From NCBI GenBank assembly GCA_036395115.1, contig DASWDU010000034.1, positions 14,941 to 78,940 of the forward strand: a DNA stretch of 64,000 bases, in the 5' to 3' direction. Shown here in pieces: positions 5,080-55,960 of this stretch. The notes below the pieces were generated by a model. That model was not told the DNA's origin. It worked only from the letters and a program-made list of their open reading frames with translations, and ran no database searches. The DNA is from Thermoplasmata archaeon. GTDB taxonomy: Archaea > Thermoplasmatota > Thermoplasmata > RBG-16-68-12. A program made the translations under genes and the position numbers. The number at the start of each line of letters is the position of its first letter. Position 1 is the stretch's first letter.

Positions 5080-5126
5080 GCGATAGGCTTATCTGGTCCG
5101 TCGCTTGAGGGGGCCCTCCGGTCTCC

Positions 5127-6719: not shown

Positions 6720-6956
6720 ACCGCAACGTACGGCGGTACGCGCGCTGAAGCCGGATGCGGGCGGAGAGGTGGCCTTCCCGGACCGGGTCGAGACTCGTGT
6801 CCTTGCCAGCCCCTGCCAGCCCGAGAACCTCACGATTGAGAAGCCAAACGCACCGTCGAGTCCCGCGGGGTCCAGCGGCTTCCTGGGCGACGCGATGAAT
6901 GTCGGGTCCGCCGATCCGGTGACCATCGGCGCCCGGCTGACTACCGAGTTGATGAC

Positions 6957-12923: not shown

Positions 12924-15623
12924 TCATCCGCTCTCGATCCCGAGTCGCTGGCGGACGAGTTCCTCGAGCCGCGCCGCGGCGGCCCTCGCCTGGTCGGCGT
13001 TCGGGAAGCTCGCCTGTGCGAAGTCCGGCTTTCCGCCGCCCTTGCCGTGGAAGTCCGGCGCGACGCTCCGGACGAGCTCCGCCGCGTCGATCGGCACCTG
13101 CACGCCGCGCGTGAGGACGAGCTTCACGTCGCTCGGCGACGGCGCCCAGTAGATCCCGATCGCCCGCGACTCGGAGGCGGTCGCCTTCGACATCGAGAGC
13201 ATGAACCCGACCCCTTGTGGGACCTCGGACCGGAGGATCGGCCATGGACCTTTCGCGGTCTCGATTTCCTGTCGCGTCTTCGCGGCCGCCTGCTCGTCCG
13301 TCGCCCGCTGGGAGATCTTGCGGTACTCCTTCCACTCGGCCACAATCCGCTCCGCGGCCGGCACGACGCGGTCCCCCGGCACTTCGAGGATCTCCGCGAC
13401 GCGCGCGAGCTCCTCGGCCTGCTTGCGCACGGCCTCGAGCGCGCCTTTGCCGGCGGCGTACTCCAGGCGGACGACGCCGTCCTGGATCCGGGTTGATCGG
13501 AGGATCTTGATCAAGGAGACGTCGCTCGTCCGCGAGACGTGGGTGCCGCCGCATGCCTCGACGTCCCACTTCGGGATCTCGACGACCCGCAGCTCGCCCC
13601 CGGGGACGGAGCCACCCTGATAGAGCCGGAAGCCGTACTTCCGCTCCGCGACGTCCCGGGCGAGGAACGTCGCCCGCACCTGGCGCCGCGCGAGGACCTC
13701 GTCGTTCGCGAGCGCCTCGATCTTCGTGACTTCCGCGTCGGTCAGGGCGTCGAAGTGGGTGATGTCGAGACGCGCCATGTCAGCGGCCTTGTGCGCGCCC
13801 GCCTGCCACACGTGGTTCCCGAGCGCCTTCCGCGCGGCGCCGAGGACGATGTGCGTGGCGGTGTGGTTCCGCATGAGTGCCTCCCGCCGCTCGCCGTCGA
13901 TCGCGCACGCGACGCGTGCGCCCTTGAGCGCGGACGCGTCGCCGCGGACGAAGTGCAGCACGCTGGCCCCGACCTTCTGGACGTCGTAAACCTCCCGGTC
14001 CCCGATTGTCCCGTGGTCCGCCTCCTGGCCGCCGCCTTCCGGGTAGAAGTACGTCTGGTCGAGGACGACCGCCTCGCCTTCGACCGCGAGGACCTTGGCC
14101 CGGAAGGCGCGCTTCCGCTTGTCCTCGTAGACGCGGAGCTTCGTCGGGGGGAGCGCCTTGGAGACCGTGACCTTCTTCGTCGCCTCGGCGGCCGCGGGCC
14201 GTTCGTGGCGGGCGGCGACCCGCGAGTAGAAGTCGTCCGGCACCTCGACGGGGGCGTCCGCGAATTCCCGGACGACGTCCGGGTTCAGTCCGTGGCTATC
14301 GTAGAGCTGGATCAACGTGTCGACGTCGAAGGCCTTCCCGGCGGCCTTCAGGTCCGCCGCGATCTTGCCGACCGTGGCACGGCCCTTTTCGAGCGTCTCA
14401 CGATACCGGGCCTCCTCGACCTTCAGGAGTTTCAGGATGTCGCCTTTGTTGAAGAAGAACTCCGGGTAGTCCTCCCGCATCTGGTCGATCATGAACGAGA
14501 CGGTGTCCGCGAGGCTGTACGTGATGTTGAGGTCCTTCAGCGCTCGCAGCCCGCGGCGCACGAGGAGGCGGGCGAAGTACCCCTCCCGGCTGTTCGACGG
14601 CACGACGCCGTCGCCGAGGAGGAAGATCAGGGCGCGCGCGTGGTCGCACACCGTGTACAGTGCTTCGAGGGGCGAGACCTGGGCGACGAGCTCGTCGACC
14701 GAGAGGCCGACCCGTTCTGCGGTCTGCCGGCGGATCTCGCGGATGTCCGCGAGGCTCTCGACCTTCAGCAGGCCCGCGACCTTCGAGTACTCCCGCAGCA
14801 CGCGGTCGTCCACGCGCTTCGCCCCGGTCGCGCGCTTCAGGTATGCGAGCGCGTCGCCGAAGACGGCCTCGTACGCCGACGTCGTGCCTTGGGAGAGCCA
14901 CGTGAGCCGCTCGAGGCCGTAGCCCGTGTCGACGACTTGCGTGTCCATTGGCACTCGATGCCCGTTCACCTCGCGGTTCATCATGAACACGAGCGTCGCG
15001 GCTTCCGCGCCGCCGAAGACGACCTCGAAGCACGGCCCGCTGTTCCCGCCGCCCTCCCACCACGACTCCTTGTACCGGACGACATCGGGCTTGAGGCCGA
15101 GCCGATCCGTGAGGAAGCCGTGGCACAGTTCGACAGTGTGATCCTTGAAGTACAGGAACTTCCCCGGAAAGTTGAACGCGTGGTGGGCCATCATCTCGAA
15201 CATCGTGAAGTGCTGCCCCGTCTTCCCGACGTTGTCGACATCGAGGAAGCGGACGCACGGCTGCGAGAGTGTGAGCGGGTTCGCAGGCGGGCTCGCCTCG
15301 CCGCTGATCACCCACGGCTGGAACGGGTAGACGCTCGCCTGCACGAAGAAGACGTCGTCGCGCCAACGGGCGACAATCGGGTAGCGCTTCACGCGAGTGT
15401 GGCCGTTCTGCTCCAGGTAGGAAAGGAAGTCCTCCCGCATCGCGCGGTAGGTGAGCTTCTTGGCGAACGGAGGATTCCCGATGAAGTCGTACTCCTGGCA
15501 CGGGGCCTCGCCACACGTCTCGTGCTGACCGATCGCCCAGAAGGCCTTCCCGCACTTCGCGCACGTCTGGCGAGTGAATCCCTGCTTGCGGAACAGCTCG
15601 ACCTCGTATTCACTCTCGGGCAT
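12924..15623 (-). CDS. alaS: Alanine--tRNA ligase (archaeal type)
   Basis: 899 aa. N-terminal 'FTRQTCAKCGKAFWA' zinc motif, class II AlaRS core, and a C-terminal 'HTATHIV...CGGTHV' editing-domain-like motif. Confidence 0.95.
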   Translation of the reverse strand: MPESEYEVELFRKQGFTRQTCAKCGKAFWAIGQHETCGEAPCQEYDFIGNPPFAKKLTYRAMREDFLSYLEQNGHTRVKRYPIVARWRDDVFFVQASVYPFQPWVISGEASPPANPLTLSQPCVRFLDVDNVGKTGQHFTMFEMMAHHAFNFPGKFLYFKDHTVELCHGFLTDRLGLKPDVVRYKESWWEGGGNSGPCFEVVFGGAEAATLVFMMNREVNGHRVPMDTQVVDTGYGLERLTWLSQGTTSAYEAVFGDALAYLKRATGAKRVDDRVLREYSKVAGLLKVESLADIREIRRQTAERVGLSVDELVAQVSPLEALYTVCDHARALIFLLGDGVVPSNSREGYFARLLVRRGLRALKDLNITYSLADTVSFMIDQMREDYPEFFFNKGDILKLLKVEEARYRETLEKGRATVGKIAADLKAAGKAFDVDTLIQLYDSHGLNPDVVREFADAPVEVPDDFYSRVAARHERPAAAEATKKVTVSKALPPTKLRVYEDKRKRAFRAKVLAVEGEAVVLDQTYFYPEGGGQEADHGTIGDREVYDVQKVGASVLHFVRGDASALKGARVACAIDGERREALMRNHTATHIVLGAARKALGNHVWQAGAHKAADMARLDITHFDALTDAEVTKIEALANDEVLARRQVRATFLARDVAERKYGFRLYQGGSVPGGELRVVEIPKWDVEACGGTHVSRTSDVSLIKILRSTRIQDGVVRLEYAAGKGALEAVRKQAEELARVAEILEVPGDRVVPAAERIVAEWKEYRKISQRATDEQAAAKTRQEIETAKGPWPILRSEVPQGVGFMLSMSKATASESRAIGIYWAPSPSDVKLVLTRGVQVPIDAAELVRSVAPDFHGKGGGKPDFAQASFPNADQARAAAARLEELVRQRLGIESG

Positions 15624-29683: not shown

Positions 29684-32305
29684 ATGGCGACGTCGAACCG
29701 CTTACCCGACACCGTCCGACCGGAGACGTATTCGATCGAGTTGCGGCCGGATCTCGGGGACTTTACCTTCCGAGGGAGCGAGTCCATTCGGATTCGCGTC
29801 GCGCGGCCCGTGAAGACGATCATCCTGAACGCCAAGGAGCTCCAGGTCCACGAGGCGACCGTGCGGTCGTCCCGGGGCCGCCCGGTGCCCGCCGCCCGGA
29901 TCGACACGGAGCCGACCACCGAGCGGGTGCGCCTGACCTTCGCGGACCCGATCCCGAAAGGCGCGGCCACGCTCGCCCTCGGCTTCACGGGGACACTGAA
30001 CGATCAGCTCGCGGGATTCTACCGGAGCAAGTACACCACGACGGCGGGCAAGGAGGGCTACATGGCCGCCACTCAGTTCGAGGCGACGGACGCCCGCCGC
30101 GCGTTCCCCTGCTGGGACGAGCCGGCGGCGAAGGCGGCTTTCGAGGTGACGCTCATCGTACCCGACGGAATGGCGGCGGTCTCGAACACTCCGGTCCTCC
30201 AAGACGAGCGCCTCGTCGATGGGACGCACCGCGTGCGATTCGCGAAGACGCCGACGATGTCGACGTACCTCCTGGCGTTCGTGATCGGCCCGCTGGAAGC
30301 CCTCAAAGGCTCGATGGCAGGCAAGACGGAGCTCGGCGTGTGGGCGCTGCCCGATCGGGTCGGCCACGGTCGTTGGGCCCTCGAGAGCGCGTCCCGCATC
30401 CTCTCCTACCTGAACGAGTACTACGGAATCCCGTATCCGCTCGAGAAGCTCGACCACGTGGCCCTCCAGGATTTCGCGGCGGGCGCGATGGAGAACTGGG
30501 GCGCGATCACGTACCGGGAACGGATCCTCCTCTTCGACCCGTCCACGTCGTCGGCGCAGACGAGCCAGAACATCGTGGACGTTATCGCGCACGAGACCGC
30601 CCACATGTGGTTCGGCGACCTCGTCACGATGGCGTGGTGGGACGACCTCTGGCTCAACGAGAGCTTCGCGTCCTGGATGGGGAACAAGGCCGTCGACGCG
30701 CTCCATCCCGAGTGGCGCATGTGGACGCAGTTCCTCCTCTTCGACACGATTCGCGGCCTCGGCCTCGATGGCCTCCGTAACTCGCATCCGATCGAGGTCC
30801 GGGTCGAGGACCCCGCCGAGATCCGCGAGATCTTCGACGAAATCAGCTACAGCAAGGGCGCGTCGATCCTCTGGATGCTCGAGCAGTTCCTCGGCGAAGA
30901 CGCGTTCCGCCGCGGGCTGCGGCGCTACCTGAACGCGCATCGATACGGGAACGCCCGCACGGAAGACCTCTGGACGGCGCTCGAGGACGTGTCCCGAAAG
31001 CCCGTGCGGGCCTTGATGGGCACATGGACGAAGCAGACCGGCTTCCCCCTCGTCGACGTCCAAATCTCCAGGAAGGCGAAGGAGGCCACGGTGAGGCTCA
31101 CCCAGTCCCGGTTCTTGTACGAGCACCTCGCGGGAGCCCCGGCGGGGAAGGCGCTCTGGAAGGTCCCCGTCCGGATCGCGCGGGCGGGTGCGCCCGAGGT
31201 GGAACGGTCCCTGATGGAGAAGCGGACGGAGACCCGGAAGGTCGCCAAGGGGAAGAGGCCTCCGGACCGGGATTGGATCAAGGTGAATGCGGGGCAGTCC
31301 GGCTTCTACCGGGTCAACTACCCTCCGGAAGAATGGGACCGGCTACGGCGGGCCGTCGTGGCGGGCGAGCTCGAGGCGGAAGATCGACTCGGCCTCCAGA
31401 ACGACGCGTACGCCCTCACGGTCGCCGGATACCTGCCGGCGATGTCGTTCCTCGAGCTGACGTCCGCGTACCGAGACGAAGACAACACCACCGTGTGGCA
31501 AGGGATCGCGGATTCCTTGATGGGATTCGAGAGCCTGATCGCCGACCGGCCGTACCTGGATTCCTTCTACGAGTACGCGAGGGACCTGTTTCGACCGGTC
31601 GTGGCCCGCACCGGATGGGCCCCTAAGAAAGGAGAAGGCCACCTCGACGCCCTGCGCCGGATGACGGTGCTCTCCCGTCTCGGCCACTACTTGGACCGAC
31701 CGGTCTTGGACGAGGCGTCGAGGCGCTTCGCGGACTCCCTGAAGGATCCCGCGTCCCTGCCTCCCGACCTGCGTTCCGTCGTGTACGGGCTCGTCGCCCA
31801 GGAGGCGGACGAGGCGACGTACGAGACCTTGTGGGGGCTCGAGCAGAAGTCGGCGCTCCAAGAGGAGCAGGTCCGCCTCCTCCTCGCCCTGACGCGGCCC
31901 CGAGGGGAATCCCTCCTCCGGGAAACCCTCGCTCGGGCCCTGTCGGACGCAGTCCGGTTCCAGGATGCGCCGATCGTGATCCGGGGCGTGGCGACGAGCC
32001 GACCGAGCGTCGGGAGGGACCTCGCGTGGACCTTCATCAAGGCGAACTGGGATGAGTTGTATCGGCGGTATTCACCTTCCGGATTCCTCATCCGCGGGCT
32101 CGCCGCAGTCCCGGAGACGTTCGCAAGCGCCAATCGGGCGCGGGAGATCGAGGCCTTCTTCAAGAGTCATCCGTCGCCCGGCGTCCGGCGGACCGTGAAA
32201 CAGGTAATGGAGAAGATCCGCGTGAACGCCGCGTGGCTCCGGCGCAACGACAAGGCTCTTGCGGCCTGGTTCCGAGGGCACGAGCCTTCGACAGCTCGCG
32301 AGTGA
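29684..32305 (+). CDS. M1-family aminopeptidase (aminopeptidase N / tricorn-interacting-factor-like)
   Basis: 'GAMENWG' motif and 'HETAHMWFGDLVTMAWWDDLWLNESFA' (HExxH-x18-E). 873 aa. Confidence 0.9.
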   Translation: MATSNRLPDTVRPETYSIELRPDLGDFTFRGSESIRIRVARPVKTIILNAKELQVHEATVRSSRGRPVPAARIDTEPTTERVRLTFADPIPKGAATLALGFTGTLNDQLAGFYRSKYTTTAGKEGYMAATQFEATDARRAFPCWDEPAAKAAFEVTLIVPDGMAAVSNTPVLQDERLVDGTHRVRFAKTPTMSTYLLAFVIGPLEALKGSMAGKTELGVWALPDRVGHGRWALESASRILSYLNEYYGIPYPLEKLDHVALQDFAAGAMENWGAITYRERILLFDPSTSSAQTSQNIVDVIAHETAHMWFGDLVTMAWWDDLWLNESFASWMGNKAVDALHPEWRMWTQFLLFDTIRGLGLDGLRNSHPIEVRVEDPAEIREIFDEISYSKGASILWMLEQFLGEDAFRRGLRRYLNAHRYGNARTEDLWTALEDVSRKPVRALMGTWTKQTGFPLVDVQISRKAKEATVRLTQSRFLYEHLAGAPAGKALWKVPVRIARAGAPEVERSLMEKRTETRKVAKGKRPPDRDWIKVNAGQSGFYRVNYPPEEWDRLRRAVVAGELEAEDRLGLQNDAYALTVAGYLPAMSFLELTSAYRDEDNTTVWQGIADSLMGFESLIADRPYLDSFYEYARDLFRPVVARTGWAPKKGEGHLDALRRMTVLSRLGHYLDRPVLDEASRRFADSLKDPASLPPDLRSVVYGLVAQEADEATYETLWGLEQKSALQEEQVRLLLALTRPRGESLLRETLARALSDAVRFQDAPIVIRGVATSRPSVGRDLAWTFIKANWDELYRRYSPSGFLIRGLAAVPETFASANRAREIEAFFKSHPSPGVRRTVKQVMEKIRVNAAWLRRNDKALAAWFRGHEPSTARE

Positions 32306-32457
32306 AGCGGCCAGTCCGAAGCCTCCTCGTGCCGTAGGCGAGTTGATCCCTATCTCGGCAGGTAGCGGGAGAGGAACGAATATTGAGCGGAAGAGTCTTA
32401 CCGAACCCCCGAGGGACCTGGTTGGCGGCATCACAGTCGGAGGCCGTTGAGGTCAAG

Positions 32458-33102
32458 GTGAGTGCGCGCTCTATTGGGAAGAAGCCGAGGACAGTCTTCG
32501 TGGCGTATCCATACAAACTATTCGCTGGAGAAGACTATCGGGCTGTGTTTGATCGCGTGGGAAAGGCGCTCGGCGTGAAATTCACGTTTGCCGACCAGAA
32601 GATACTTGATGTCCACATCTTGGAAAAGATCGCCCTCATGATCAAAGAAGCAGAGTTCTCCATTTTCGACATCTCAGGGTGGAATCCAAACGTTACCTTG
32701 GAGTATGGACTGGCTCTCGGATTTGGCGAGAAGAAGTTCCTGCTGTTCGATCCAGGCAAGACAGAATTTAGTGAAGTGCCCGCGGATGTCAGGGGGTTTG
32801 ACCGGCTTGAGCACCGGTCCTATGCAGAACTTGAGCGTGCCCTCACGTTCCTCATCGCCCAGGAGTTCCCGCCTGAGAAGAAAGCCGACCCACTCGGAGA
32901 CTTACAAGTCCAGATTAAGGACCTCCTTGCAAGAACGCCGGGGGTTTCAAGGAGCACCGTCGCAGCGGCGCTCGGGATTAGGCCGGAACTGGCTAGCTTG
33001 GTGCTCGGCCAGATGGTCGGCACCGAGCTTGAGGTGCGCGGGGAAAGGAGGGGCACGAAGTACTACCTTAAAGGCTCAGCACCAGCGGGGCCAAACCATT
33101 AG
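32458..33102 (+). CDS. Fusion protein: nucleoside 2-deoxyribosyltransferase-like (NDT/Rcl-fold) N-domain plus C-terminal winged HTH
   Basis: 'TVFVAYPY...' Rossmann-like start; 'FDISGWNPNVTLEYGLALGFGEKKFLLF' matches the NDT-family catalytic-Glu block. C-terminal '...STVAAALGIRPELASLVLGQMVGTELEVRGERRGTKYYL' is a wHTH. Visibly lower GC. Start ambiguous: TTG at 32383 or GTG at 32458. Confidence 0.6.
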   Translation: MSARSIGKKPRTVFVAYPYKLFAGEDYRAVFDRVGKALGVKFTFADQKILDVHILEKIALMIKEAEFSIFDISGWNPNVTLEYGLALGFGEKKFLLFDPGKTEFSEVPADVRGFDRLEHRSYAELERALTFLIAQEFPPEKKADPLGDLQVQIKDLLARTPGVSRSTVAAALGIRPELASLVLGQMVGTELEVRGERRGTKYYLKGSAPAGPNH

Positions 33103-33198
33103 CCGCACTTTGGCGGAGGCCTTTGATCCACGGGGGCAAACACAGCCGCGGCCTCCGTAATGCGTCTGGCGGCCTCCTAACCACGTCCCCGCAATGTT

Positions 33199-33783
33199 GT
33201 GGGAGCGGCCCAGACCCCAATATCTGGTATTGCGGAGTCGGTCCCAAAACATTCATTCTCTCGGGCTGACTTGCGGTCAAGCGTGAGAAGCGTCCGGATC
33301 AACCGCAGGCTGGGGGTAGGCCCTAAGCCGCTCACGACCGTGTTCCCCGGCCTGGATCGGGACCCGAACTTCATCGCGCTTTTCAACGACGGGCTGCGGG
33401 AGAAGGTCTTGGCCGAGACGCGCGTGAATCTGGTCCCCGAAGACTCCTACGCCTACATCGACGACGAGCGGGGGTGGGTGAACCTCGGGCATGGATACCT
33501 GAAGACCGGCGAGGCCCGAATCCTCTACCTCGACATCCTGCACGAATTGACCCACATCCGCCAGTGGCACGAGGGGAAGGAACTATGGGATCGGAAGTAC
33601 GACTACGTAGACCGGCCTACCGAGGTGGAGGCCTACCGGGTCGCGGTTGAAGTCGCCCGGAAGATCGGGATGACCGACCGGGAAATCGCCGATTATCTCC
33701 GGGTGGAATGGACCAGCCGCGAAGAGCACGAGCGGCTGTGCCGCCGCCTCGGGGTGCGGCAGACCGACTCCCGCGCTCACTGA
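33199..33783 (+). CDS. HExxH putative metallopeptidase-like protein (DUF4157-like)
   Basis: '...GWVNLGHGYLKTGEARILYLDILHELTHIRQWHEG...'. The resemblance to the DUF4157 block (Gly-rich segment followed by 'LLAHELTHVVQ') is from memory. Confidence 0.55.
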   Translation: MGAAQTPISGIAESVPKHSFSRADLRSSVRSVRINRRLGVGPKPLTTVFPGLDRDPNFIALFNDGLREKVLAETRVNLVPEDSYAYIDDERGWVNLGHGYLKTGEARILYLDILHELTHIRQWHEGKELWDRKYDYVDRPTEVEAYRVAVEVARKIGMTDREIADYLRVEWTSREEHERLCRRLGVRQTDSRAH

Positions 33784-33837
33784 CTGCCTATGATTGTCTG
33801 ACGGGGCTGATGGGGGAATCACCCGATCAAGGGCAAA

Positions 33838-47202: not shown

Positions 47203-48858
47203 TCACATCCCCATTCCGGGCATGCCGCCCATCCCGCCCATGCCGCCGCCGTGTTCGCCGCCACCGGGCGGAGGCGGGGGCGACTTCTTCGAGGCGATGA
47301 TGTCGTCGATGCGGAGGATCATGCCCGCGACTTCCTGGGCGGACTCGATTTCTTGGGTCTTGACACGGAGCGGCTCGACGATGTTCGCCTTGAGCATGTC
47401 GAGGGGCTCGCCCGTCATGACGTTCACTCCCATCGACTTGCCGCCCTTCTTCCCGTGTTCCGCGCGGAGCTTGATCAGGACGTCGATCGGATCGAGGCCC
47501 GCGTTTTCGCCGAGCGTCCTCGGGATCACGTCGAGCGCCTGCGCGAACGCTTCAATCGCCAACTGTTCCCGGCCCCCGATCGTCGCCGCGTAATCCTTGA
47601 GCGCCAGGGACAGCTCGACCTCCGCCGCCCCGCCGCCGGCGATCGCCTTGCCGTCCTCGATCGTCGCAGCCACCACGCGCAGCGCGTCGTGGAGGATTCG
47701 CTCGACCTCATCGACGACGTGCTCCGTGCCGCCGCGCACGAGGATCGACACGGCGCGGGCTTTCTTGCAGCCGGTGACAAAGGTCATGTCGTCCGTCCCG
47801 ACCTTCCGCTCCTCGACGAGCTCGGCGCTCCCGAGTTCCTTCGCCGTGAGGTCGTCCAGGTTCGTGACCGCGCGCGCGCCCGTCGCCTTCGCGAGCTTCT
47901 TCATATCGCTTTCCTTGACGCGACGCACCGCGTAGATGCCCTCCTTCGCGAGGTAGTGCTGTGCGACGTCGTCGATGCCCTTCTGGCACAGGACGACGTT
48001 GGCCCCGGATGCCCTGATCTTGTCGACCATCGTCTTGAGGCTCTTCTCTTCCTCGTTCAGGAACAGCTGTAGCTTGCCCGGATCGCGGATTCGGATCTCC
48101 TCGTTCACCTCGGTCTTCTTGACCTCGAGGGCGCGGTTGATCAGGGCGATCTTCGCGTCGCGGACGAACTTCGGCATCCGAGGATGCACGCGCTCTTTGT
48201 CCAAGACGACGCCGTCGATCAGGTTCGTGTCGCTCAGGCTCCCCCCGTGTTTCTTCTGGACGAGGATGTTGTCGACGTCCGCGCGGAGTTCCCCCGCGAC
48301 CTCCTCGACGATCGACTGCACCGCGTCCACGGCGATGCCGGCGAGGAAGTCGGCATTCGTACCGACGCTGCGGCCAGACATCGCCGTCCGGGCGATCGAC
48401 CGGAGGGTCGTCTTGTCGTCCCTCTTCACGGGGAAGGCGAGCTGGTTGAGTCGGCGGACCGCCTCGGCCGCCGCCATCCGGTAGCCGTTCACGATGATCG
48501 TCGGGTGGACCTCCTGCTCGATCAGGCTCTCGGCGGCTTTCAGGAGTTCCCCGGCGAGGATGACGGCACTCGTCGTCCCGTCTCCGACCTCGTCGTCCTG
48601 CGTCTTAGCGACCTCGACGAGCATCTTCGCCGTCGGGTGTTCGATCTCGATTTCCTTGAGGATCGTGACCCCATCGTTCGTAATCGTCACGTCGCCGAGA
48701 GAGTCGACGAGCATCTTGTCCATGCCTTTCGGGCCAAGGGTCGACTTGACCGCATCGGCGACCGCGCGGGCGGCGGCGATGTTGTTCGACACTGCGCCCT
48801 TGCCCTTCTCCCGTTCCGTCCCTTCCTTCAAGATGATGATTGGCTGACCGCCCATCAT
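47203..48858 (-). CDS. ths: Thermosome subunit (group II chaperonin)
   Basis: '...[28 protein letters not shown]...' and a C-terminal GGM repeat tail. Confidence 0.95.
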
Positions 48859-48991
48859 TTGGATTCCCGCGGGTCTATGCGAGGGCTTCTATATGAGCGT
48901 TGCCCTTGAGTGGTTCCGTTGCGTTGTTCTTGGCGCCCCCGGGGGGCGGGTGAGAGTGGCTCGCGATGGTCTTAGGGAACCGAGGTGGGGC

Positions 48992-49162
48992 TTACCGGAA
49001 CAAGATCTCAGTCCTGAGCGCCTTCCCATCGAAGTGTACTATCATTTTCTTCGTTTTCAGCTGACGCCAAGTCCACTCGGCGACTTCCTTTGGCTCACAG
49101 ACCTTGAAGTTGCGTCTGTCAACAATAATCTCTTGGATGATATGCCGGCGCTCATATCTCAC
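48992..49162 (-). CDS. Hypothetical small protein (56 aa) in the low-GC island
   Basis: GTG-start ORF from my own translation: 'VRYERRHIIQEIIVDRRNFKVCEPKEVAEWTWRQLKTKKMIVHFDGKALRTEILFR'. Confidence 0.25.
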   Translation of the reverse strand: MRYERRHIIQEIIVDRRNFKVCEPKEVAEWTWRQLKTKKMIVHFDGKALRTEILFR

Positions 49163-49185
49163 CGGCGACTCTGGAAGGTCTATGG

Positions 49186-49467
49186 TTACTCCTCGCCAAG
49201 AATCCAGATCCTCAGTTTGTCTCCTTCCCTGTGAACCGCGTACTCTTGTCCGGACGTGTCACGAAAGAGGGATAGCGTGTCTTCTGACATCTCTTCGGGC
49301 ACGAGCCGGAAGAGCGGTTCTCTCAGCTGGGACATGCGCATTACACCCTGCTCGAAGGTCTTGATCCATTGGGTGAGGCTTCTAAAGGGATTAAAACGAA
49401 ATGGGGTTCCGATCTCTCGTCCGATGCCTGTTAAAACCTGACCGCCTGGTATCAGTCCATGACTCAC
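49186..49467 (-). CDS. Hypothetical protein (93 aa), low-GC island
   Basis: ATGA overlap with the upstream 126-aa gene, suggesting an operon. Confidence 0.35.
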   Translation of the reverse strand: MSHGLIPGGQVLTGIGREIGTPFRFNPFRSLTQWIKTFEQGVMRMSQLREPLFRLVPEEMSEDTLSLFRDTSGQEYAVHREGDKLRIWILGEE

Positions 49468-49844
49468 GGTTTTCCGCCCTCCGCTTCCTGGATTAGTGAA
49501 CGATACCTCTTCAGCACGTTCTCGATGTTCTGCGAGAACAGCTCCTTGTCCTCCGAACTGGCCGTGAGGATGTCCCCGCCCCGTGTTAGAATAGGACTTA
49601 CGTCCATGATGAACTTTATGAAACGACCGGCTTGCTCGTCGGGAATCCTCGAAAGGAAGCCCGCGAGGGCATTCGGATCATTGAGCTTCGTCAGTACGTC
49701 CGACTTGAGTCCCGTTTCGGCCTCGAGCGTCGCCATGTCCCGTGCCAACCCTCCGAAAATCTTGACGAGTCCGTACATGAAAAGAATCAGCTTGCGAGAG
49801 TCAGGCTCTCCGACCTTCGGTTCTGGCATGGGCGGCCCGTTCAC
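49464..49844 (-). CDS. Hypothetical acidic protein (126 aa), low-GC island
   Basis: No recognisable motif; first gene of a three-gene minus-strand unit divergent from the DGQHR gene. Confidence 0.4.
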   Translation of the reverse strand: MNGPPMPEPKVGEPDSRKLILFMYGLVKIFGGLARDMATLEAETGLKSDVLTKLNDPNALAGFLSRIPDEQAGRFIKFIMDVSPILTRGGDILTASSEDKELFSQNIENVLKRYRSLIQEAEGGKP

Positions 49845-50137
49845 GGATGGACACCAACGGCTAAAGCCTTTCTCAACCCGACGTTCTGTGGTGGATGGTT
49901 TCTGGCGAAGGGTTCCGTTTCGACGTTGTTGACGCGCCTTCCGGTAGGTTTATCCCTTATGCCCGGTTATGCCCAGATAGTCCAGCGGCTGTAACCCTCC
50001 ACGACGTGGCTGGGGGTCGCGGACGAGAAGGCAAAGCGTGTTTACGAGTAGCGGCGCCCTCACCGAGGCGGCCTCACTGTCCTCCGGCTTTGGACCCTCC
50101 ACAGCAGTGGTTGGGGGCGGGAGGACGATGTGAGACC

Positions 50138-51331
50138 ATGGAAAGCCAAACAAGGCGAAAGGCGGTGGCCCCCGCCGAAGAGAAAGGGGTCGAAGGCGTG
50201 AACACTCGGCAGGCAGTCCGGGAGATCCGGAAGCTTGCCCTAGAGTACGAGCAGCACGGGAACCGGTTCTACGTCACGGTGTGGACGGGCACCGAGTTGG
50301 CGAAGAGCACGACGGTGCCGGTCTTCGACAGCAGGAAAGAAGACGGGTACCAGCGGCTCCCCAAGAAGCAGCGCGTACACAGGGCGGCCAAGTACCTCCT
50401 TTCGGGAGGGAAGTTCCCGGGGGCCATCCTCCTGAGCATCAGGGGTCCGGACCGTGAGAAGATCTCCGTGCGCCCGATCCAGGATGTCCCGGGGAACGGG
50501 TTCTACCGGCTCGTCGAACTAACCATTCCGGCGGGGGTCATGATCTACCTCGTCGATGGACAGCACCGGAAGTACGCCCTCGTCGAGGGGATCGACCAGG
50601 GGAGCCACCTCGAGAACTTCGGGCTCGCCTCGGTCATTTTTCTTTCCGAGGACGAGGTCGACGAGGCCCAACAGTTCCGGACCGTCCACAAGGAGCAAAA
50701 GAACGTCCCCACGGACCTCGTGGACCGGATCCTGCTCCGCGAAGTGGAGACGGATCGGGTGAACCCGATCGCCCTCCGGCAAGCCGGCGAGTACAAGAAG
50801 CTCCGGGAGTGGACCGCGATCCGCGTCACGCGCCTCCTGGACGAGCTGCAGGGGAGCCCGTGGCATGGCCGGATCAAGCCTCCGAACGCGGGGATGTTGG
50901 CCGAGGAGGCCAAGGCCAAGGGCGACGAGGCCCCGGACTGGGACGTGACGGAGAACAGCGTCAAGACGTCGCTTACACCCGTCATCGAGTTGCTCGACGG
51001 ATGGGAGCCAGAAGCAATCGCGAACATGCTCGTCGCGTACTGGCAAGCGGTCGTCGAGGTGTGCGCACAGGCCTGGGCGAACAAGGAGGCCTATCTGTAC
51101 ATGCACAACACGAAGGGGATCTACGTCCTCCACTCGTTCTTCCCGGCGTGCTTCGCGCACTCCGTGAAGCTATCGGGTGGGCCGTCGAAGGACAACTTCG
51201 CCTCCGTGCTCTCGGATGCGGGCTTGGACGACGAGTTCTTCGCCCGTGGAGGGGAGCTCGAGGGGGTCGGAGGTTGGGGCGGGTTCAAGACGAAGGCGCA
51301 GGAACTCGTGTCGAACCTAGCCGAGACGTAG
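50138..51331 (+). CDS. DGQHR-domain protein (DndB-like; ParB/Srx-fold)
   Basis: 'VMIYLVDGQHRKYALVEG' DGQHR motif. ~397 aa, the size of DndB. 'gggaggac' SD-like element 11 nt upstream of the ATG. Confidence 0.75.
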   Translation: MESQTRRKAVAPAEEKGVEGVNTRQAVREIRKLALEYEQHGNRFYVTVWTGTELAKSTTVPVFDSRKEDGYQRLPKKQRVHRAAKYLLSGGKFPGAILLSIRGPDREKISVRPIQDVPGNGFYRLVELTIPAGVMIYLVDGQHRKYALVEGIDQGSHLENFGLASVIFLSEDEVDEAQQFRTVHKEQKNVPTDLVDRILLREVETDRVNPIALRQAGEYKKLREWTAIRVTRLLDELQGSPWHGRIKPPNAGMLAEEAKAKGDEAPDWDVTENSVKTSLTPVIELLDGWEPEAIANMLVAYWQAVVEVCAQAWANKEAYLYMHNTKGIYVLHSFFPACFAHSVKLSGGPSKDNFASVLSDAGLDDEFFARGGELEGVGGWGGFKTKAQELVSNLAET

Positions 51332-51388
51332 CCACCGGATGAGGGGGCCCGCGCCCCCACTCTCTTTTTTTCAGCGACCCGCCTAGCC

Positions 51389-52795
51389 TCAGTCCTCGTC
51401 GTCGTCCTCCGACACGTCGAGAACCATCTGCTCCCCGGGGATCTCCCTCACTCTCTCGCGGACCTTCACGTTGCTGATGATGAGGACATCCGGTACGGCG
51501 TCTGTGCCCATTTCTCGGCTGGCCAAGGAATTCTTTCTCCATTGGTCGACGGTCAGCGGTCGAAGGTAGTAGTTGAACCGTGACCCGACGTACAGCCAGA
51601 GCTGACGCTTGCTCCACTCCGCGTGCCTCAACGCCTCCAGGAAATCATCCCGTTTCATGACGGAGACCGTCGGCCCAATCCCGAAGGTCGAGAGCGGTGC
51701 TTCCTTGGACGCCTCGAGGATGGAATCAAGAAGGCCATCGTCAAATGTGGCCCCCCGATTCATCACGAAGAAGAGATCAAGGACGGACCGGCGCTTGCTC
51801 CCGCGGGAAGCTCGCCTGTAGCCCCGGTGCGAAATGGCGAATACGGATCCCACGCCGTCCTCACTCAGGCTTGCCAGGCCACGTCGCTTCGCGGTCTCTC
51901 GCGCCAAGAGGTAGGCGTACTTCAGCTTGCGAAGGGCCTGGATTCGACGAGAAAGGGTTCGCTTCCACCCGTCCTGGGATTGCTTTGCTTCAAGGCGCTT
52001 CTGCCACAATCGCTGGACTTCCGGCAGAACCTTCTTGGGGAAATTGGCCACGAACTCCTCATTGAGTTCCAGGCCGATCGCCTTCCGATCCATGCAATCT
52101 GCTTGGGCCACAACAATCCCGGTTCCGGCGAAGCAGTCGAGGACAATATCACCGGGGTCCGTCGTTAGCTCGATGATGCGCTCAGCGAGGGCTGGAGGAA
52201 AAGGGCAGTAGTGTCGAAGGAATCCGTTGCTCCAGGAGCCCTGCGTCGGGATTGGCACACGCCACACGTTTCCCGGATCTTTTCCCTGCGGATTGTAACG
52301 TTCTGGGTACTTCACCCACCATCGCTTGAGATCGACCGGTTCCCGGATTCGATTGACGAAATACTTGAAGGTCGCGCCTTTTGAGAAGAACAGAACGTAC
52401 TCGAAAGCGTCGCGGAACATGCCCTTGGCCGACCACGGGAGCGTCTTCGTCTTGTCCCATATGACGACATCCTGAAGCTTCCAGCCCAGACCCTTCAACC
52501 GGTTGGCCAGATCGAACGGCAGCGGCAAGAGCTCCCCGCTTCGTTTAACGGAGTCGGCAACGATCCACAGGGAACCGCTCTGCTTGGTAACCTTCAGAAC
52601 GTCCGCGAATACCCGTTGAAGCGCGGAGAGATATTCCTCGTAGCTCGACTCCCTCCCGATCTGCTGAGGGAATCCCCAATCCTTCTGACCCCAATAGGGG
52701 GGCGAGGTCAGTGTCAAGGTGACGCTATCTGGTTCCACGGCTTCGGAGAGGCGGCGTGCATCCTGCCAGAGAAATTTATATGACTGCTCGCTCAT
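51389..52795 (-). CDS. Beta-class amino (N4-C/N6-A) DNA methyltransferase with ~200-aa unknown C-terminal domain and acidic tail
   Basis: Motif IV 'TSPPYW' precedes motif I 'DCFAGTGIV' (beta-class order). 'aggtgagg' SD-like element 9 nt upstream of 'MSEQSYKF'. Ends 'DVSEDDDED'. Confidence 0.8.
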   Translation of the reverse strand: MSEQSYKFLWQDARRLSEAVEPDSVTLTLTSPPYWGQKDWGFPQQIGRESSYEEYLSALQRVFADVLKVTKQSGSLWIVADSVKRSGELLPLPFDLANRLKGLGWKLQDVVIWDKTKTLPWSAKGMFRDAFEYVLFFSKGATFKYFVNRIREPVDLKRWWVKYPERYNPQGKDPGNVWRVPIPTQGSWSNGFLRHYCPFPPALAERIIELTTDPGDIVLDCFAGTGIVVAQADCMDRKAIGLELNEEFVANFPKKVLPEVQRLWQKRLEAKQSQDGWKRTLSRRIQALRKLKYAYLLARETAKRRGLASLSEDGVGSVFAISHRGYRRASRGSKRRSVLDLFFVMNRGATFDDGLLDSILEASKEAPLSTFGIGPTVSVMKRDDFLEALRHAEWSKRQLWLYVGSRFNYYLRPLTVDQWRKNSLASREMGTDAVPDVLIISNVKVRERVREIPGEQMVLDVSEDDDED

Positions 52796-53099
52796 CTTCT
52801 CGACCTCACCTGCTTTTTCCCGGTCGGATTCGGGACTTTCCGAAGGCAGGACGGGCACGAAACGTTGAGAAGATCGGACTTCGTCGTCCATTGGTGGCCA
52901 CAGTGTGGGCACTTGAGCGTGGTCATGGTCGGACGGGATGCTGGTAGTAGTAGCAGTAGTAGCCATCCGTTTAATGGGGAAAACCCTTTCTATGGCTCGC
53001 CTGCCTTTGTGTTCGCCAGTCAAGAGATCGTGCATGTCGGCGTCTTCGGATCTTGGTGTCAGATGCATCCCGCCGGACTCCAAAGGCGACTCCTTCCGG

Positions 53100-54330
53100 G
53101 ATAAAGTCGGTGCGGCGCCGTAGCATACATGCATGCTACGTGAGTCCTCGTCGCTCCTTCCAGTACGTCGCCCATCGGATCAGGTCGCCCCACCCATCGT
53201 CGAACGGCAGTCGGATCCCGGCAGCTATGGCTGGCGTGCCGCCGTCCAGCGATTCGTGGCCCCGAAGGAAATCGTATTGCACGACGAAGGCGTGGCTGAA
53301 CGCCTCCGCCCCGGCGGGGGTCTGGAAGCCGCGCATTGTCTTCACGCGGTCCTTGAATGTCCCATTCAGCCGCTCGATGAGATTGTTGTTCGGGCCGCTC
53401 CGGAAGTGAATCCGATTCAAGTGGAGTCGCCCCGTTGTGTTCGCGTAGAAGTTCCTTCGGACGCCTTCGCGGTAGGCGGCCAAGCGGTCCGTCACGATCC
53501 GTTCGGGCCGCGTTAGGGAAACGGCCTTCGCCTCCCGGAACAGGCGAACGGCGTGTTCGTCCTTCCGGCCCCACTCCGTCACGGAACTCGATGCGATAAA
53601 CCGCGTCCCCGCGTCCTCCGTGAACCACGTCCACATGTCCACTCCCGCGACCTTGATCGCGGTCTCGTCGGCGTGCCACGTCGTGCTTAGGTCCGCTCGG
53701 AACGAGGACGTGTACTCGCGGACCAGCGGCGCGTACTTCCGGAGCCACCGCCAGATTGTCGACTTGTCCCGCCGGGGGTAGAGGTTGCGCCCCGTCCGCT
53801 TGTGGCTCAGGCCGTCCACATACAGACGAAGCGCGGAGGCGATCACACGGGTCGGCGTCCGCATCTTCGGAAGCCGTCCGTTGTCCTCGAACGTATGGTG
53901 ACAGTCTTTGCATCGGAGCACCTGCACGCCGCGCTTCCGGCCGTACTTCGTCACATGGTTCGAGGCACAGTACTTGCATTTGCCCTTCCTCTCGGCAACT
54001 TGATACGCGAGCTGTTCCTTACTGATCGTCCGGGGTTCGTCGGACACAACGACGAGCCTCCCAGCCAAGCGGTGTTCACAGCACCGCTTGGCTCCACTTT
54101 CTCCATAGGAACAGAGGCTAATCTGTGTGACAGCAGGGGGTGAGCGAACCTCCTCGGGAACGAGGAAAACCCGCCATTTATCGCGCGTACGGCGCGTCCC
54201 TGGGCGATCTGAAACACTTTCACTCGGGAGGCTAGTCTGACGGTGCCGACGGTGGACGTGCCGACGCGCGTTCTGGCCCAATCCCGGGGCTTCCTACCCA
54301 CGCCCGGGATGGCTACGCCTGGGTCGGTTT
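53100..54330 (-). mobile_element. IS6-family insertion sequence (approximate ends)
   Basis: Single IS6-type transposase; boundaries and TIRs not resolved. Confidence 0.5.
53136..54281 (-). CDS. IS6-family transposase with N-terminal zinc-ribbon/HTH extension
   Basis: '...WHADETAIKVAGVDMWTWF...IVTDRLAAY...NNLIERLNGTFKDRVKTMRGF' DDE region; N-terminal 'CKYCASNHV...CKDCHH'. True start probably internal. Confidence 0.75.
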   Translation of the reverse strand: MGQNARRHVHRRHRQTSLPSESVSDRPGTRRTRDKWRVFLVPEEVRSPPAVTQISLCSYGESGAKRCCEHRLAGRLVVVSDEPRTISKEQLAYQVAERKGKCKYCASNHVTKYGRKRGVQVLRCKDCHHTFEDNGRLPKMRTPTRVIASALRLYVDGLSHKRTGRNLYPRRDKSTIWRWLRKYAPLVREYTSSFRADLSTTWHADETAIKVAGVDMWTWFTEDAGTRFIASSSVTEWGRKDEHAVRLFREAKAVSLTRPERIVTDRLAAYREGVRRNFYANTTGRLHLNRIHFRSGPNNNLIERLNGTFKDRVKTMRGFQTPAGAEAFSHAFVVQYDFLRGHESLDGGTPAIAAGIRLPFDDGWGDLIRWATYWKERRGLT

Positions 54331-54754
54331 CCACCAGATTCTCACCCGGAACGAATCCGGGTGTCCATGCGCTCCATCCCTCTTGGCGAGGGCAGTTCTC
54401 CCATCCGGGTTTGTGAGCGGTGGTCGGAGGTTGGACCAACTCTTTATAGATTGCGGGGGCCGGGGCGGGACTCACAAGCCCAGAGGTCATGCGCCTCAGA
54501 ACGCTACCCTCCCCGACCCTTTCCGCCAAGAATAATGCAACGGAATCCCCTTGAGTCACTTCCCGGTGGAGGTCTCGGCGAGGTGGCGTCGGGCGGATAG
54601 CGAACCCACGCTTCCGATTCGGAACGCCTCGTGCTCGTGGGTCTCCGTCATCGCGGTTTCTTCGGAGTCCTTGAGGGGACCTGTGTCCGCCGCCCGATCC
54701 CTTGGGATGGCGTCGCAACTGATAAGGCGGGTTTCCTCGTTGTCTCGCGTCCTC

Positions 54755-55960
54755 ATGGGGCCACCGTGCCGCTACTGCAACCAAATCAAGGCCCACTCGC
54801 GCGCCTACCGACCCCGGTCTGCCTCGCACGCCGTAGCCACGCCATTTCCGCGATGCGACTGGCATTGGAGGTTCGTGTGCGCCGTGTGTGGCAAGTCGCG
54901 CCACTTCCACGGCATCGCGTATTGTGGACGAGAGCAGCGGTTCTTTTGCCTCTACTGCGCGCCCGAGCACCGCGCACCGCGGAAGCCCTTCTGGGGCTGG
55001 TCGTACCACTACCGTCTGCGCTGCCCATGGCGGTCCGAATGGCACGCAGCACTCGATCGGCTGGAGTACGAGCGCAGACACCCATGGCAGGTGAAGCGAT
55101 CGTGGCAGCGCGCGAGGCGCGGCATGAGTGAGGATGAGAACATCCAGGCCAGCTGGTCGTTTCGCGTCCAAGCGCTCGAGGACGTCACAGAGGAGGACTC
55201 GCGGAAAGGCTGGGACTCGGTCGCGGAGTGGTGGATTTCGCGGTATACCGAGAGAGGCGACGTGAACCGGGAATGGGTGATCGACCCCGCTCTGTTCCGC
55301 CTCCTGGGCGACGTGCGAGGCAGACGAATCTTGGACGCGGGCTGCGGCACCGGTTACCTAGCCCGCATCCTCGCCGCGAAGGGCGCGATTGTGGTCGGTG
55401 TCGATCTCTCTCCGAAGCTCCTCGCGGCGGCTCGAAAGCAAGAGGCTCTGGAGCCTCTCGGCGTCGAGTACGAGGAAGCGGATCTCGCGGATCTTTCGCG
55501 TTTCGGCGACGGGACGTTCGATGTGGTGGTGTCGAACGTCGTGATGCAGGATGTCCTCCGATACCGCGAAGCGTTCCGGGAACTCCGTCGGATCATCCGG
55601 CCCGGGGGACAGCTCCTGTTCAGCGTCACCCATCCGTGTTTCGAGCGCCCCATCCCCGGATCGTGGCTTCGGGAGCCCCCGGATACGGAGCGAGTCGAAG
55701 AGTGGCGGGGCCTGCTAGTCGATAGATACTACGACCGAGTCGCAGTCTGGTGGGGACCCGCGGGCAAGGAGACCGCGGTCGGCTTCCACCGCACCTTGGA
55801 GGATTACGTCACCGCGTTGCACGACGCGGGATTCTTCGTGGTACGGATGGAGGAACCCGTGCCCAGCGAGGATGCACTGCAACGCATGTACCGCGAGTTC
55901 GCAGACTACTCACGTGTGCCACTGTTCCTGATCATCGAAGCGATTTGCTTGGCGGCTTGA
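54755..55960 (+). CDS. Cys-rich zinc-finger domain fused to class I SAM-dependent methyltransferase (Methyltransf_11-like)
   Basis: N-terminal 'CRYCNQ...CDWHWRFVCAVCGKSRHFHGIAYCGREQRFFCLYCAPEH...C'; methyltransferase motif I 'ILDAGCGTGYLARIL' and '...DVVVSNVVMQDV...'. Start ambiguous: 54551, 54707 or 54755. Confidence 0.6.
   Translation: MGPPCRYCNQIKAHSRAYRPRSASHAVATPFPRCDWHWRFVCAVCGKSRHFHGIAYCGREQRFFCLYCAPEHRAPRKPFWGWSYHYRLRCPWRSEWHAALDRLEYERRHPWQVKRSWQRARRGMSEDENIQASWSFRVQALEDVTEEDSRKGWDSVAEWWISRYTERGDVNREWVIDPALFRLLGDVRGRRILDAGCGTGYLARILAAKGAIVVGVDLSPKLLAAARKQEALEPLGVEYEEADLADLSRFGDGTFDVVVSNVVMQDVLRYREAFRELRRIIRPGGQLLFSVTHPCFERPIPGSWLREPPDTERVEEWRGLLVDRYYDRVAVWWGPAGKETAVGFHRTLEDYVTALHDAGFFVVRMEEPVPSEDALQRMYREFADYSRVPLFLIIEAICLAA

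Follow-up and report, generated by a model that had tools for sequence, protein, structure and literature searches.

A DGQHR-domain protein and a beta-class DNA methyltransferase with a family-specific C-terminal domain as a recurring gene pair and candidate methylation-based defence module, seen from a soil Thermoplasmata archaeon

The window analysed here is a 64,000-nucleotide stretch of contig DASWDU010000034.1 (positions 14,941 to 78,940 of the forward strand; assembly GCA_036395115.1) from a Thermoplasmata archaeon, in which a gene for a DGQHR-domain protein lies tail-to-tail with a gene for a beta-class DNA methyltransferase that carries an additional C-terminal domain (CTD). The adjacency of CTD methyltransferases and DGQHR proteins is not fortuitous; it recurs in bacteria, archaea and phages. 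With the arguments for and against evenly poised in our judgement, we propose that the pair may supply the modification half of an apparently undescribed family of methylation-based defence systems, one that resembles restriction-modification (R-M) systems, with the DGQHR protein as its nucleoside triphosphatase (NTPase) accessory. The locus was found again in several soil metagenomes, and its host is a soil Thermoplasmata archaeon. Labels of the form L001 denote related loci that were compared with it. The two genes are:

50138-51331, plus strand: DGQHR-domain protein gene, 397 amino acids (aa); open reading frame (ORF) list and profile matches
51389-52795, minus strand: beta-class DNA methyltransferase gene, 468 aa; ORF list and profile matches

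The initial annotation had given both ORFs at these positions as convergent genes with a 57-bp gap, and all of this was confirmed in the sequence, the two stop codons being separated by exactly 57 bp.

Recurrence of the methyltransferase-DGQHR pair

One genome per species was scanned with an alignment of the methyltransferase family, which gave 30 loci with a CTD methyltransferase (L012-L041) and 50 loci with a generic beta-class methyltransferase that served as the control. A match to the DGQHR hidden Markov model (HMM) is encoded immediately downstream in 20-21 of the 30 CTD loci as compared with 3 of the 50 control loci, and in the CTD loci the DGQHR gene often overlaps the methyltransferase stop codon by 16-45 nt. 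In an independent scan of viral contigs, a DGQHR gene was adjacent in 4/4 family loci and in 0/58 controls. When the two scans are combined, direct adjacency is seen in 25 of 34 family loci and 3 of 108 generic loci (Fisher's exact p = 3e-17). The co-conservation of the two genes, on which their treatment as one module had depended, is thus well beyond chance. Furthermore, across 17 loci the pairwise identities of the methyltransferases rise and fall with those of their partners (Mantel r = 0.77, p = 2e-4), which shows that methyltransferase and DGQHR partner travel together, though their hosts come from different phyla. The pair in the window belongs to the module as defined, with the CTD motifs present in the methyltransferase and a DGQHR protein as its immediate neighbour.

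Most partners are about 600 aa long and have the DGQHR core at roughly residues 255-355, preceded by some 215 aa that form an N-terminal domain (loci L012-L034, L041, L114-L117, L180 and L182-L190). This domain shows the near-invariant pattern GF ... E-x-D-D-I-F ... E-N-V-x4-E-(Y/D)-T ... H-L-x-K-K. As a hypothesis only, the pattern may be compared with a PD-(D/E)xK nuclease core that has a displaced lysine; Pfam and PDB sequence-profile searches gave no significant match for the domain. All nine long DGQHR proteins in viral contigs adjoin a beta-class methyltransferase, four of which have the CTD and five of which are shorter and lack it. In the cultured Akkermansia phage Chantilly, the methyltransferase gene and a gene for a 616-aa 'hypothetical protein' are convergent and overlapping and lie beside an integrase gene. 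Such obligate pairing with a methyltransferase is as expected of a restriction enzyme, and the long form of about 600 aa is a candidate for a new restriction-enzyme architecture.

The two proteins and the leader of the DGQHR gene

The methyltransferase of the window matches PF01555 with 160.9 bits (E 6e-47). It carries SPPY at residue 31 and FAGTG at residue 222; because SPPY comes ahead of FAGTG, the motifs are in the beta-class order. By profile and motifs, the protein is an intact beta-class DNA amino-methyltransferase. The SPPY motif and the top Foldseek match point tentatively to N4-cytosine rather than N6-adenine as its target. The gene divides into two parts:

52043-52795, minus strand: catalytic domain (SPPY ... 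FAGTG), PF01555 match
51389-52042, minus strand: CTD of about 215 aa, family-specific, consisting of a helix of about 59 residues, an alpha/beta domain and an acidic tail

The acidic tail ends SEDDDED. No Pfam, NCBIfam or PADLOC family matched the CTD (the last ~215 aa), and in a PDB sequence profile search with the methyltransferase only positions 6-262 were matched, so that no solved structure was found over the CTD, for which the predicted model is confident (residues 246-441). The description of this protein as a 468-aa beta-class methyltransferase with an extra C-terminal domain of no recognisable family is borne out by the PF01555 match and the Pfam and PDB searches; nor did the CTD resemble a known R-M specificity or restriction domain in the Pfam and PDB sequence searches. 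Three motifs of the CTD, LRxLKYP, PPLSKFGI and PPIxSNI, are conserved in a 37-sequence alignment, and the window protein reaches 168 bits against the CTD HMM.

A search with the full-length methyltransferase gave 368 matches at E <= 1e-20 among 8000 candidates scored. Those among the 120 matches listed are mostly 420-500 aa long and about 40% identical to the query, the majority covering >80% of it, and the hosts of the relatives are Bacteroidota, Planctomycetota, Chloroflexota, Acidobacteriota, Proteobacteria and archaea. When the CTD by itself was used in an exhaustive HMMER search of 1.84 billion representative proteins, the matches were proteins of methyltransferase-like length with the CTD at about residues 250-465 of 430-540, together with shorter proteins of 210-360 aa and one 968-aa fusion of a GHKL ATPase, a methyltransferase and the CTD. 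These searches indicate that the CTD is a hallmark of a large methyltransferase family, not an oddity of the window gene.

Read to its full extent, the methyltransferase ORF would encode 581 aa, and lengths of 500 or 581 aa appear in public gene calls. The extension (52796-53134) enters a neighbouring insertion sequence of the IS6 family and is absent from the homologues, which begin at the methionine at 52795, and a GGTGAGG element lies 8 nt upstream of this start. The 500- and 581-aa calls are an annotation artefact.

The DGQHR protein carries GYQR at residue 70 and DGQHR at residue 140. It scores above the curated cutoffs of both Pfam DndB PF14072 (70.4 bits, cutoff 29.1; E 1.9e-19) and TIGR03187 DGQHR (107.7 bits, cutoff 58.85), in agreement with the DGQHR motif and DndB-like identity first assigned to it. 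Its N-terminal half has a ParB/Srx fold, as judged by a structural-similarity test, and its C-terminal half is helical. The best PADLOC match is DpdB (E 6.8e-15, most of the length covered). The equivalog cutoffs are nevertheless missed widely, both for DndB (TIGR03233, 20.5 bits vs 328; TIGR04172, 44 bits vs 450) and for DpdB (NF041060, 54.1 bits vs 300), which, with the absence of the partner genes described below, upholds the earlier statement that the locus is not a canonical dnd or dpd system. No nuclease match was obtained in the helical half, and Pfam gave no DUF1524/HNH match. A HEPN domain in this half, as proposed for DndB (PMC3632139), was considered and rejected, there being no conserved Rx4-6H motif and no HEPN structural match. 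From these comparisons, the window protein is intact and is the short, DndB/DpdB-like form, which lacks the N-terminal domain of the long form. It has only a handful of close relatives (59-82% identity), all of them from soil archaea of a similar kind.

The DGQHR gene is preceded by a conserved putative promoter and a leader, which were seen at 49945-50137 of the window, in L001, in L003 and in L092-L100. Their elements, together with one that follows the gene, are:

49945-49953, plus strand: TATA-box-like TAGGTTTAT; TA and the TTTAT core do not vary among the 10 distinct upstream regions compared in the clade
49980-50024, plus strand: leader hairpin 1, containing the 28-nt block and the palindrome; candidate operator or RNA element
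50038-50133, plus strand: possible upstream ORF of 31 codons, weak; it begins with GTG here and ATG in relatives, and its TGA lies 4 nt before the DGQHR start
50077-50127, plus strand: leader hairpin 2, including the GGAGG Shine-Dalgarno-like element of the DGQHR gene (RNAalifold, 10 sequences)
51343-51371, plus strand: terminator-like hairpin GGGGGCCCGCGCCCCC and a run of seven T, read from the sequence, 3' of the DGQHR stop and inside the 57-bp gap; putative function

The sequence TAGGTTTAT is located about 27-35 nt upstream of the conserved block, and its position and conservation suggest that it is a promoter element of the DGQHR gene. The 28-nt block ACCCTCCACGACGTGGYTGGGGGTCGCG (49994-50021), in which the Y position alone varies, is kept across loci whose coding DNA is 72-78% identical, and it includes the invariant palindrome CCACGACGTGG (49999-50009). 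An exact-pattern scan of metagenome contigs for the block returned nine loci, and in 9/9 it stands directly upstream of a DGQHR gene of the window clade. RNAalifold predicted the two hairpins in the leader of about 155 nt from 10 distinct sequences, with 95.4% of the cells paired as compared with 41-53% when the partners were slid. All 17 of the 17 predicted pairs of hairpin 1 are kept and hardly vary, so that covariation neither supports nor contradicts this stem. In hairpin 2, eight pairs are changed on both sides, mainly in one sub-clade, and hence represent few independent events. Most of the 10 leaders preserve the frame of the possible upstream ORF and an SLSSGF-like peptide; the ORF is interrupted in L001 and extends further in the L003 group. 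No Rfam match to the leader was found. The idea that the conserved upstream block is a tRNA fragment or a known RNA was discarded, as no tRNA lies there and Rfam has no match.

DndB is a repressor that binds palindromes in its own promoter and thereby represses its own operon (PMC4507180). By analogy, the 28-nt block is likely to be an operator or RNA element for autoregulation, and an invariant palindrome at the promoter of the DGQHR gene itself fits such a role.

Relatives, alternative partners and surroundings of the window locus

In L001 and L002, a DGQHR gene (82% identity in L001) is convergent with a CTD methyltransferase gene (67%) in the same arrangement as in the window, and upstream of the methyltransferase are a gene for an 85-aa protein and an AIPR/AbiU gene. 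In L001, these two genes occupy the position of the IS6 element of the window. At the DNA level, the window resembles L001 only in 49980-51323 (the DGQHR gene and its upstream region) and 51876-52890 (the methyltransferase). The genes of L006 are co-directional: DGQHR (68%), a 146-aa ORF and a CTD methyltransferase (43%), followed by an AIPR fragment. In L003, L095 and L098, genes for an AIPR-like protein and a 333-aa methyltransferase, with BglII/BamHI-like fragments, are found instead of the CTD methyltransferase. The L001 contig also carries a pair formed by a GHKL ATPase and a 308-aa methyltransferase, and a HEPN-domain gene pair (4897-7531 and 13472-14250); the DGQHR gene of this relative lies in a dense cluster of defence genes.

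The soil archaeal contig L176 encodes a DGQHR protein of 37% identity and a methyltransferase of 53% identity, the closest-but-two relative of the window methyltransferase. These values are incongruent with those of L006 (68% and 43%), which indicates that the DGQHR-methyltransferase association formed more than once. At 7001-15404 of L176/L177, the methyltransferase gene leads a cluster whose further genes encode a protein of 293 aa, an AAA_16 protein and BrxC/PglY-like and PglZ-like proteins, with the DGQHR gene 2.3 kb upstream. The cluster has the appearance of a BREX-like system that uses a small beta-class methyltransferase in place of PglX.

Methyltransferases of the family are found beside other, restriction-like candidate effectors as well, in particular where DGQHR is absent. 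A GHKL (HATPase_c_3) protein of about 560 aa with a protein of about 290 aa is encoded next to them in L018, L013, L015 and L023, and this GHKL protein matches the PADLOC models of type II restriction enzymes (REase_II, E 3.6e-14). A pair of about 800 and 230 aa occurs in L030, L035, L036, L038 and L179, and an SNF2 helicase with a NOV_C nuclease in L029 and L031. On haloarchaeal plasmids, the GHKL ATPase is fused to the methyltransferase and CTD in proteins of about 970 aa (975 aa in one):

L105 5594-8521 and L106 5603-8500 (Halobaculum and Halococcus plasmids); P0155: GHKL-methyltransferase-CTD fusions

Each fusion in L105 and L106 is followed by a second CTD methyltransferase, and an SMC-like AAA ATPase and several hypothetical genes are nearby; the cluster looks like a multi-gene system of its own. 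The GHKL, SNF2/NOV_C and BREX-like partners argue that the CTD family acts as an interchangeable modification component for several effector types. Extra candidate effectors accompany short-form DGQHR genes too, namely AIPR/AbiU (L001, L006), GHKL with a 291-aa protein (L013), an 822-aa with a 259-aa protein (L038) and BrxC/PglZ-like proteins (L176).

The bacterial short forms are followed by a partner of their own of about 270-300 aa, with a methyltransferase present in L040, L055 and L013. The same combination occurs without a methyltransferase in the viral contig L112 and on 15 Providencia plasmids (L181 5001-6871), where the short-DGQHR two-gene cassette lies between umuD and umuC. The ~270-300-aa partner is weakly conserved, with the motifs W..V..YY..YF......R..G and H..VW.N, and it had no Pfam match in the three loci tested (L040, L055 and L112). 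The short form of L040 matches PADLOC DpdB with E 5.3e-32. In other archaea (L101-L104), the next-nearest homologues of the window protein (about 25% identity) are encoded in a conserved order, UbiA - DGQHR - cyclophilin-like, beside ribosomal S12/S7 genes and with no modification genes. This housekeeping-looking context suggests a non-defence role for some DGQHR proteins.

In the window itself, the gene pair has the following neighbours:

47203-48858, minus strand: thermosome gene, left neighbour of the locus
48992-49844, minus strand: three small low-GC ORFs (56, 93 and 126 aa), in the low-GC stretch and outside the conserved module
52954-54321, minus strand: probable IS6-family insertion sequence; transposase 53136-54047, ORF to 54281; ends approximate
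beyond the IS6 element: SAM-methyltransferase/thioredoxin block, right neighbour of the locus

The annotated gene lists available for copies of the window locus from other samples cover at most about 10 kb to each side of the gene. In these Pfam-annotated copies there are no dnd, dpd or restriction-endonuclease genes: dndC, dndD and dndE (with or without dndA) are absent from the lists, as are DpdA (TGT-like) and DpdC from the annotated neighbourhood. No recognisable endonuclease was found within the locus by Pfam, NCBIfam, PADLOC or the annotated copies, the sole candidate being the DGQHR protein, which has no identified nuclease domain. The initial claim that DndA/C/D/E, DpdA and restriction endonuclease genes are missing therefore stands, and the locus is not a classical type II system either. 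The window contains no AIPR, GHKL or other effector, and a tblastn search for a remnant of AIPR/AbiU or another effector found none.

The IS6 element lies about 160 bp upstream of the methyltransferase start in the same orientation and is present in a single copy in the window. Its transposase had been noted beyond the methyltransferase, and the ORF indeed matches PF13610 (DDE_Tnp_IS240) with 55.8 bits (cutoff 27), with an NCBIfam IS6 score of 110 bits that is below the cutoff of 125. Candidate inverted repeats are located at 52954-52968 and 54307-54321 (core GTAGCCATCC/GGATGGCTAC) and are imperfect (13/15); no 8-bp target duplication was found at the ends.

The three small ORFs, which had been counted as a unit of the island, exist as ORFs but are not part of the module. 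They have no Pfam, NCBIfam or PADLOC match and no homologue in about 180 related loci apart from identical copies of the window locus, and gene callers disagree on them. The notion that they are module members or a decayed form of the ~290-aa partner gene was dropped, as they have no similarity to any neighbour in the ~180 loci.

The base composition is uneven. In 500-nt windows, the GC content is 0.52-0.60 at 48750-50250 and 0.56-0.61 at 51250-53250, against a mean of 0.653 for the whole window (standard deviation 0.030, 1.4-kb windows). GC at third codon positions (GC3) is 0.89-0.92 in flanking host genes and 0.87, that is, host-like, in the DGQHR gene; the methyltransferase has 0.73, and the three small ORFs have 0.58-0.70. 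The methyltransferase and small-ORF stretch has a foreign or recent look, and the DGQHR gene a resident or long ameliorated one, which argues against a single homogeneous island. The low-GC island of the initial annotation is thus real as a dip when computed but is not one acquired block, given the host-like GC3 of the DGQHR gene, which is constant in the clade with its own promoter and leader while its downstream neighbours vary. The proposal of a horizontally acquired defence-type module fares similarly: the co-conservation of the pair and the foreign GC3 of the methyltransferase speak for it, whereas the DGQHR gene is host-like and the small ORFs have to be excluded.

The sole other stretch of the window with 1.4-kb windows below 0.60 GC is at about 32000-33800. 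At 54551-55960, a SAM-methyltransferase ORF is longer than the gene callers have it (278 aa), with an upstream extension that is rich in cysteine and resembles a zinc ribbon; the PADLOC 'mad2' match of this ORF is limited to the generic SAM-binding domain.

Comparison with known systems and interpretation

Accessory roles within modification modules have been described for DndB and DpdB (PMC4507180, PMC10164549, PMC12839542, PMC10853773, 10.1101/2025.10.10.680097). DpdB is an ATPase that DpdA requires to modify DNA (PMC10164549, PMC12839542), and a DndB-like protein binds ATP and GTP (10.1101/2025.10.10.680097). ParB-like and COG1479 domains are linked to R-M systems in general (PMC3632139), and phage ParB-CTPase-fold domains are fused to N6_N4 methyltransferases (10.1101/2025.10.10.680097).

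The window protein shares with DndB its domain family (PF14072, TIGR03187), similar size, ParB/Srx fold, GYQR and DGQHR motifs, a gene position beside a DNA-modification enzyme and a palindrome at its own promoter. Unlike in dnd loci, however, the neighbour is a methyltransferase in place of the sulfur-insertion machinery, the genes converge and do not form one operon, and DndA, C, D and E are absent. DpdB, the best defence-library match, is likewise an NTPase accessory of a DNA-modifying enzyme, but the window lacks DpdA/TGT, DpdC and the dpdD-K restriction genes. In comparison with type II R-M systems (M.PvuII, M.MboIIA, M.RsrI), the CTD has no counterpart in solved methyltransferases, and the partner is a ParB/DGQHR protein without a nuclease domain rather than a recognised endonuclease. 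GmrSD, BrxU, SspE and DndI combine a DUF262 ParB-like NTPase with a DUF1524 HNH domain, which the window lacks; moreover, their target is modified DNA and they require no methyltransferase of their own, the very protein that is the conserved partner here. The phage fusions resemble the pair in that a ParB-fold domain is associated with an N6_N4 methyltransferase, but each of them is one polypeptide with a canonical ParB N-domain and a presumed anti-defence function; here there are two genes, a DGQHR subfamily protein and a methyltransferase with its own CTD. PADLOC 2.0 has no model for the pair and gave only generic methyltransferase and DpdB/DndB matches, and full-text literature searches retrieved no description of it (REBASE was outside their scope). 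The module thus remains, as first stated, unmatched to a described system.

The mechanism that we propose is as follows. The methyltransferase, intact by homology, would mark host DNA. As comparative genomics shows, CTD methyltransferases are a modification component for interchangeable partners, of which DGQHR proteins are by far the commonest. The DGQHR protein, after DndB and DpdB, would be an NTP- and DNA-binding accessory that controls or reads the modification. The killing activity would come from elsewhere: in the long forms, probably from the fused PD-(D/E)xK-like N-domain, and at most short-form loci, probably from a separate neighbour (AIPR/AbiU, GHKL with the ~290-aa protein, the 800- and 230-aa pair or BREX-like genes). 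The copy in the window would have no effector, with the IS6 element standing where relatives carry AIPR. It may therefore be, and probably is, incomplete or reduced, as a short form without a recognisable nuclease; the lack of an effector and the IS6 element in the AIPR position make a modification-plus-accessory remnant or a minimal variant most likely, not a full restriction system.

Several observations weigh against the proposal. The short DGQHR form is also found without any methyltransferase (in other archaea, Providencia plasmids and viral contigs), which makes the dependence stronger from methyltransferase to DGQHR protein than the reverse. Two or three resolved loci of the window clade have AIPR and a different methyltransferase downstream and no CTD methyltransferase. 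The two genes of the window converge instead of forming an operon, and their codon usage differs (GC3 0.87 vs 0.73). The nuclease assignment of the long-form N-domain derives from a motif pattern and nothing else. Removal of an effector by IS6 is conjectural, and no AIPR remnant is detectable in the window. Finally, all of the support for a defence family is computational.

A more specific version is that this is a distinct, NTP-switch-controlled form of methylation immunity, in which a ParB-like NTPase, possibly docked on the CTD, reads methylation and gates either a fused nuclease (long form) or separate effectors (short form), with the Thermoplasmata DGQHR gene under a new cis-regulatory leader that its product recognises. 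We regard this version as doubtful, though worth stating.

One alternative is that the window holds a complete two-gene R-M system in which the short DGQHR protein itself nicks or cuts unmethylated DNA under NTP control, by a nuclease activity such as that reported for some ParB/Srx-fold proteins. We think that this is unlikely. The short form lacks the N-domain that marks the obligately paired long form, no nuclease motif was identified in it, and it exists without a methyltransferase, which would be intolerable for a toxic restriction enzyme; in addition, bacterial short forms have their own ~270-300-aa partner, which is absent here.

Another scenario is that the methyltransferase is a regulated orphan with an epigenetic or housekeeping function and no role in defence, the DGQHR protein being a DndB-like transcription factor that tunes methylation. 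The DndB precedent (PMC4507180), the invariant palindrome at the promoter of the DGQHR gene, the host-like codon usage of that gene, the lack of a nuclease in the window and the housekeeping neighbourhoods of distant DGQHR homologues are all in keeping with this scenario. The palindrome, however, is at the DGQHR promoter and not at that of the methyltransferase, whose codon usage is foreign, and elsewhere the family is found overwhelmingly in defence islands and mobile elements (AIPR/AbiU, HEPN, GHKL, BREX-like genes, prophage integrase, IS), so that we hold the scenario to be rather improbable.

A third possibility is that the adjacency in the window is incidental, a resident DGQHR gene marking a hotspot for R-M or abortive-infection cassettes and insertion sequences, with the methyltransferase as one cargo. 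Within the clade, the DGQHR gene and its leader are indeed constant and the genes downstream vary, being either the CTD methyltransferase or AIPR with another methyltransferase and BglII/BamHI-like fragments; the two window genes differ in codon usage and converge on a terminator-like hairpin, and IS6 is next door. Yet a rare methyltransferase family stands beside DGQHR genes of at least three lineages in several phyla (p = 3e-17 against generic methyltransferases), and the incongruent identities of L176 and L006 imply repeated association. We therefore consider a mere hotspot quite improbable. That the protein is a DpdB-like NTPase helper that loads or activates the methyltransferase on DNA, possibly via the CTD and with no restriction, seems very improbable: despite the DpdB matches (E 6.8e-15 for the window protein, 5.3e-32 for the L040 short form), the requirement of DpdB ATPase activity for DNA modification by DpdA (PMC10164549) and the GHKL fusions, which show physical cooperation of the family with NTPases, it is established that beta-class methyltransferases of this fold need no helpers (M.PvuII, M.RsrI, CcrM), and 9 of the 30 family loci from the genome scan have no DGQHR partner.

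The proposed defence family matters in the first place for DGQHR proteins of the DndB/DpdB type, which so far have been understood only as accessories of phosphorothioate and 7-deazaguanine modification. The present comparison links them to ordinary base methylation no less tightly, through a module that spans bacterial phyla, archaea and a cultured temperate phage; ParB-fold NTPases may thus have a general function in the control or reading of DNA modification. If the proposal is true, the long partner of about 600 aa would be a new restriction-enzyme architecture, and the CTD, which is also fused to GHKL ATPases and found next to BREX-like genes, would be a candidate for the docking domain through which a single methyltransferase family serves effectors of several types. 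The main value of the window copy is as an entry point to this family and to the conserved archaeal leader element.

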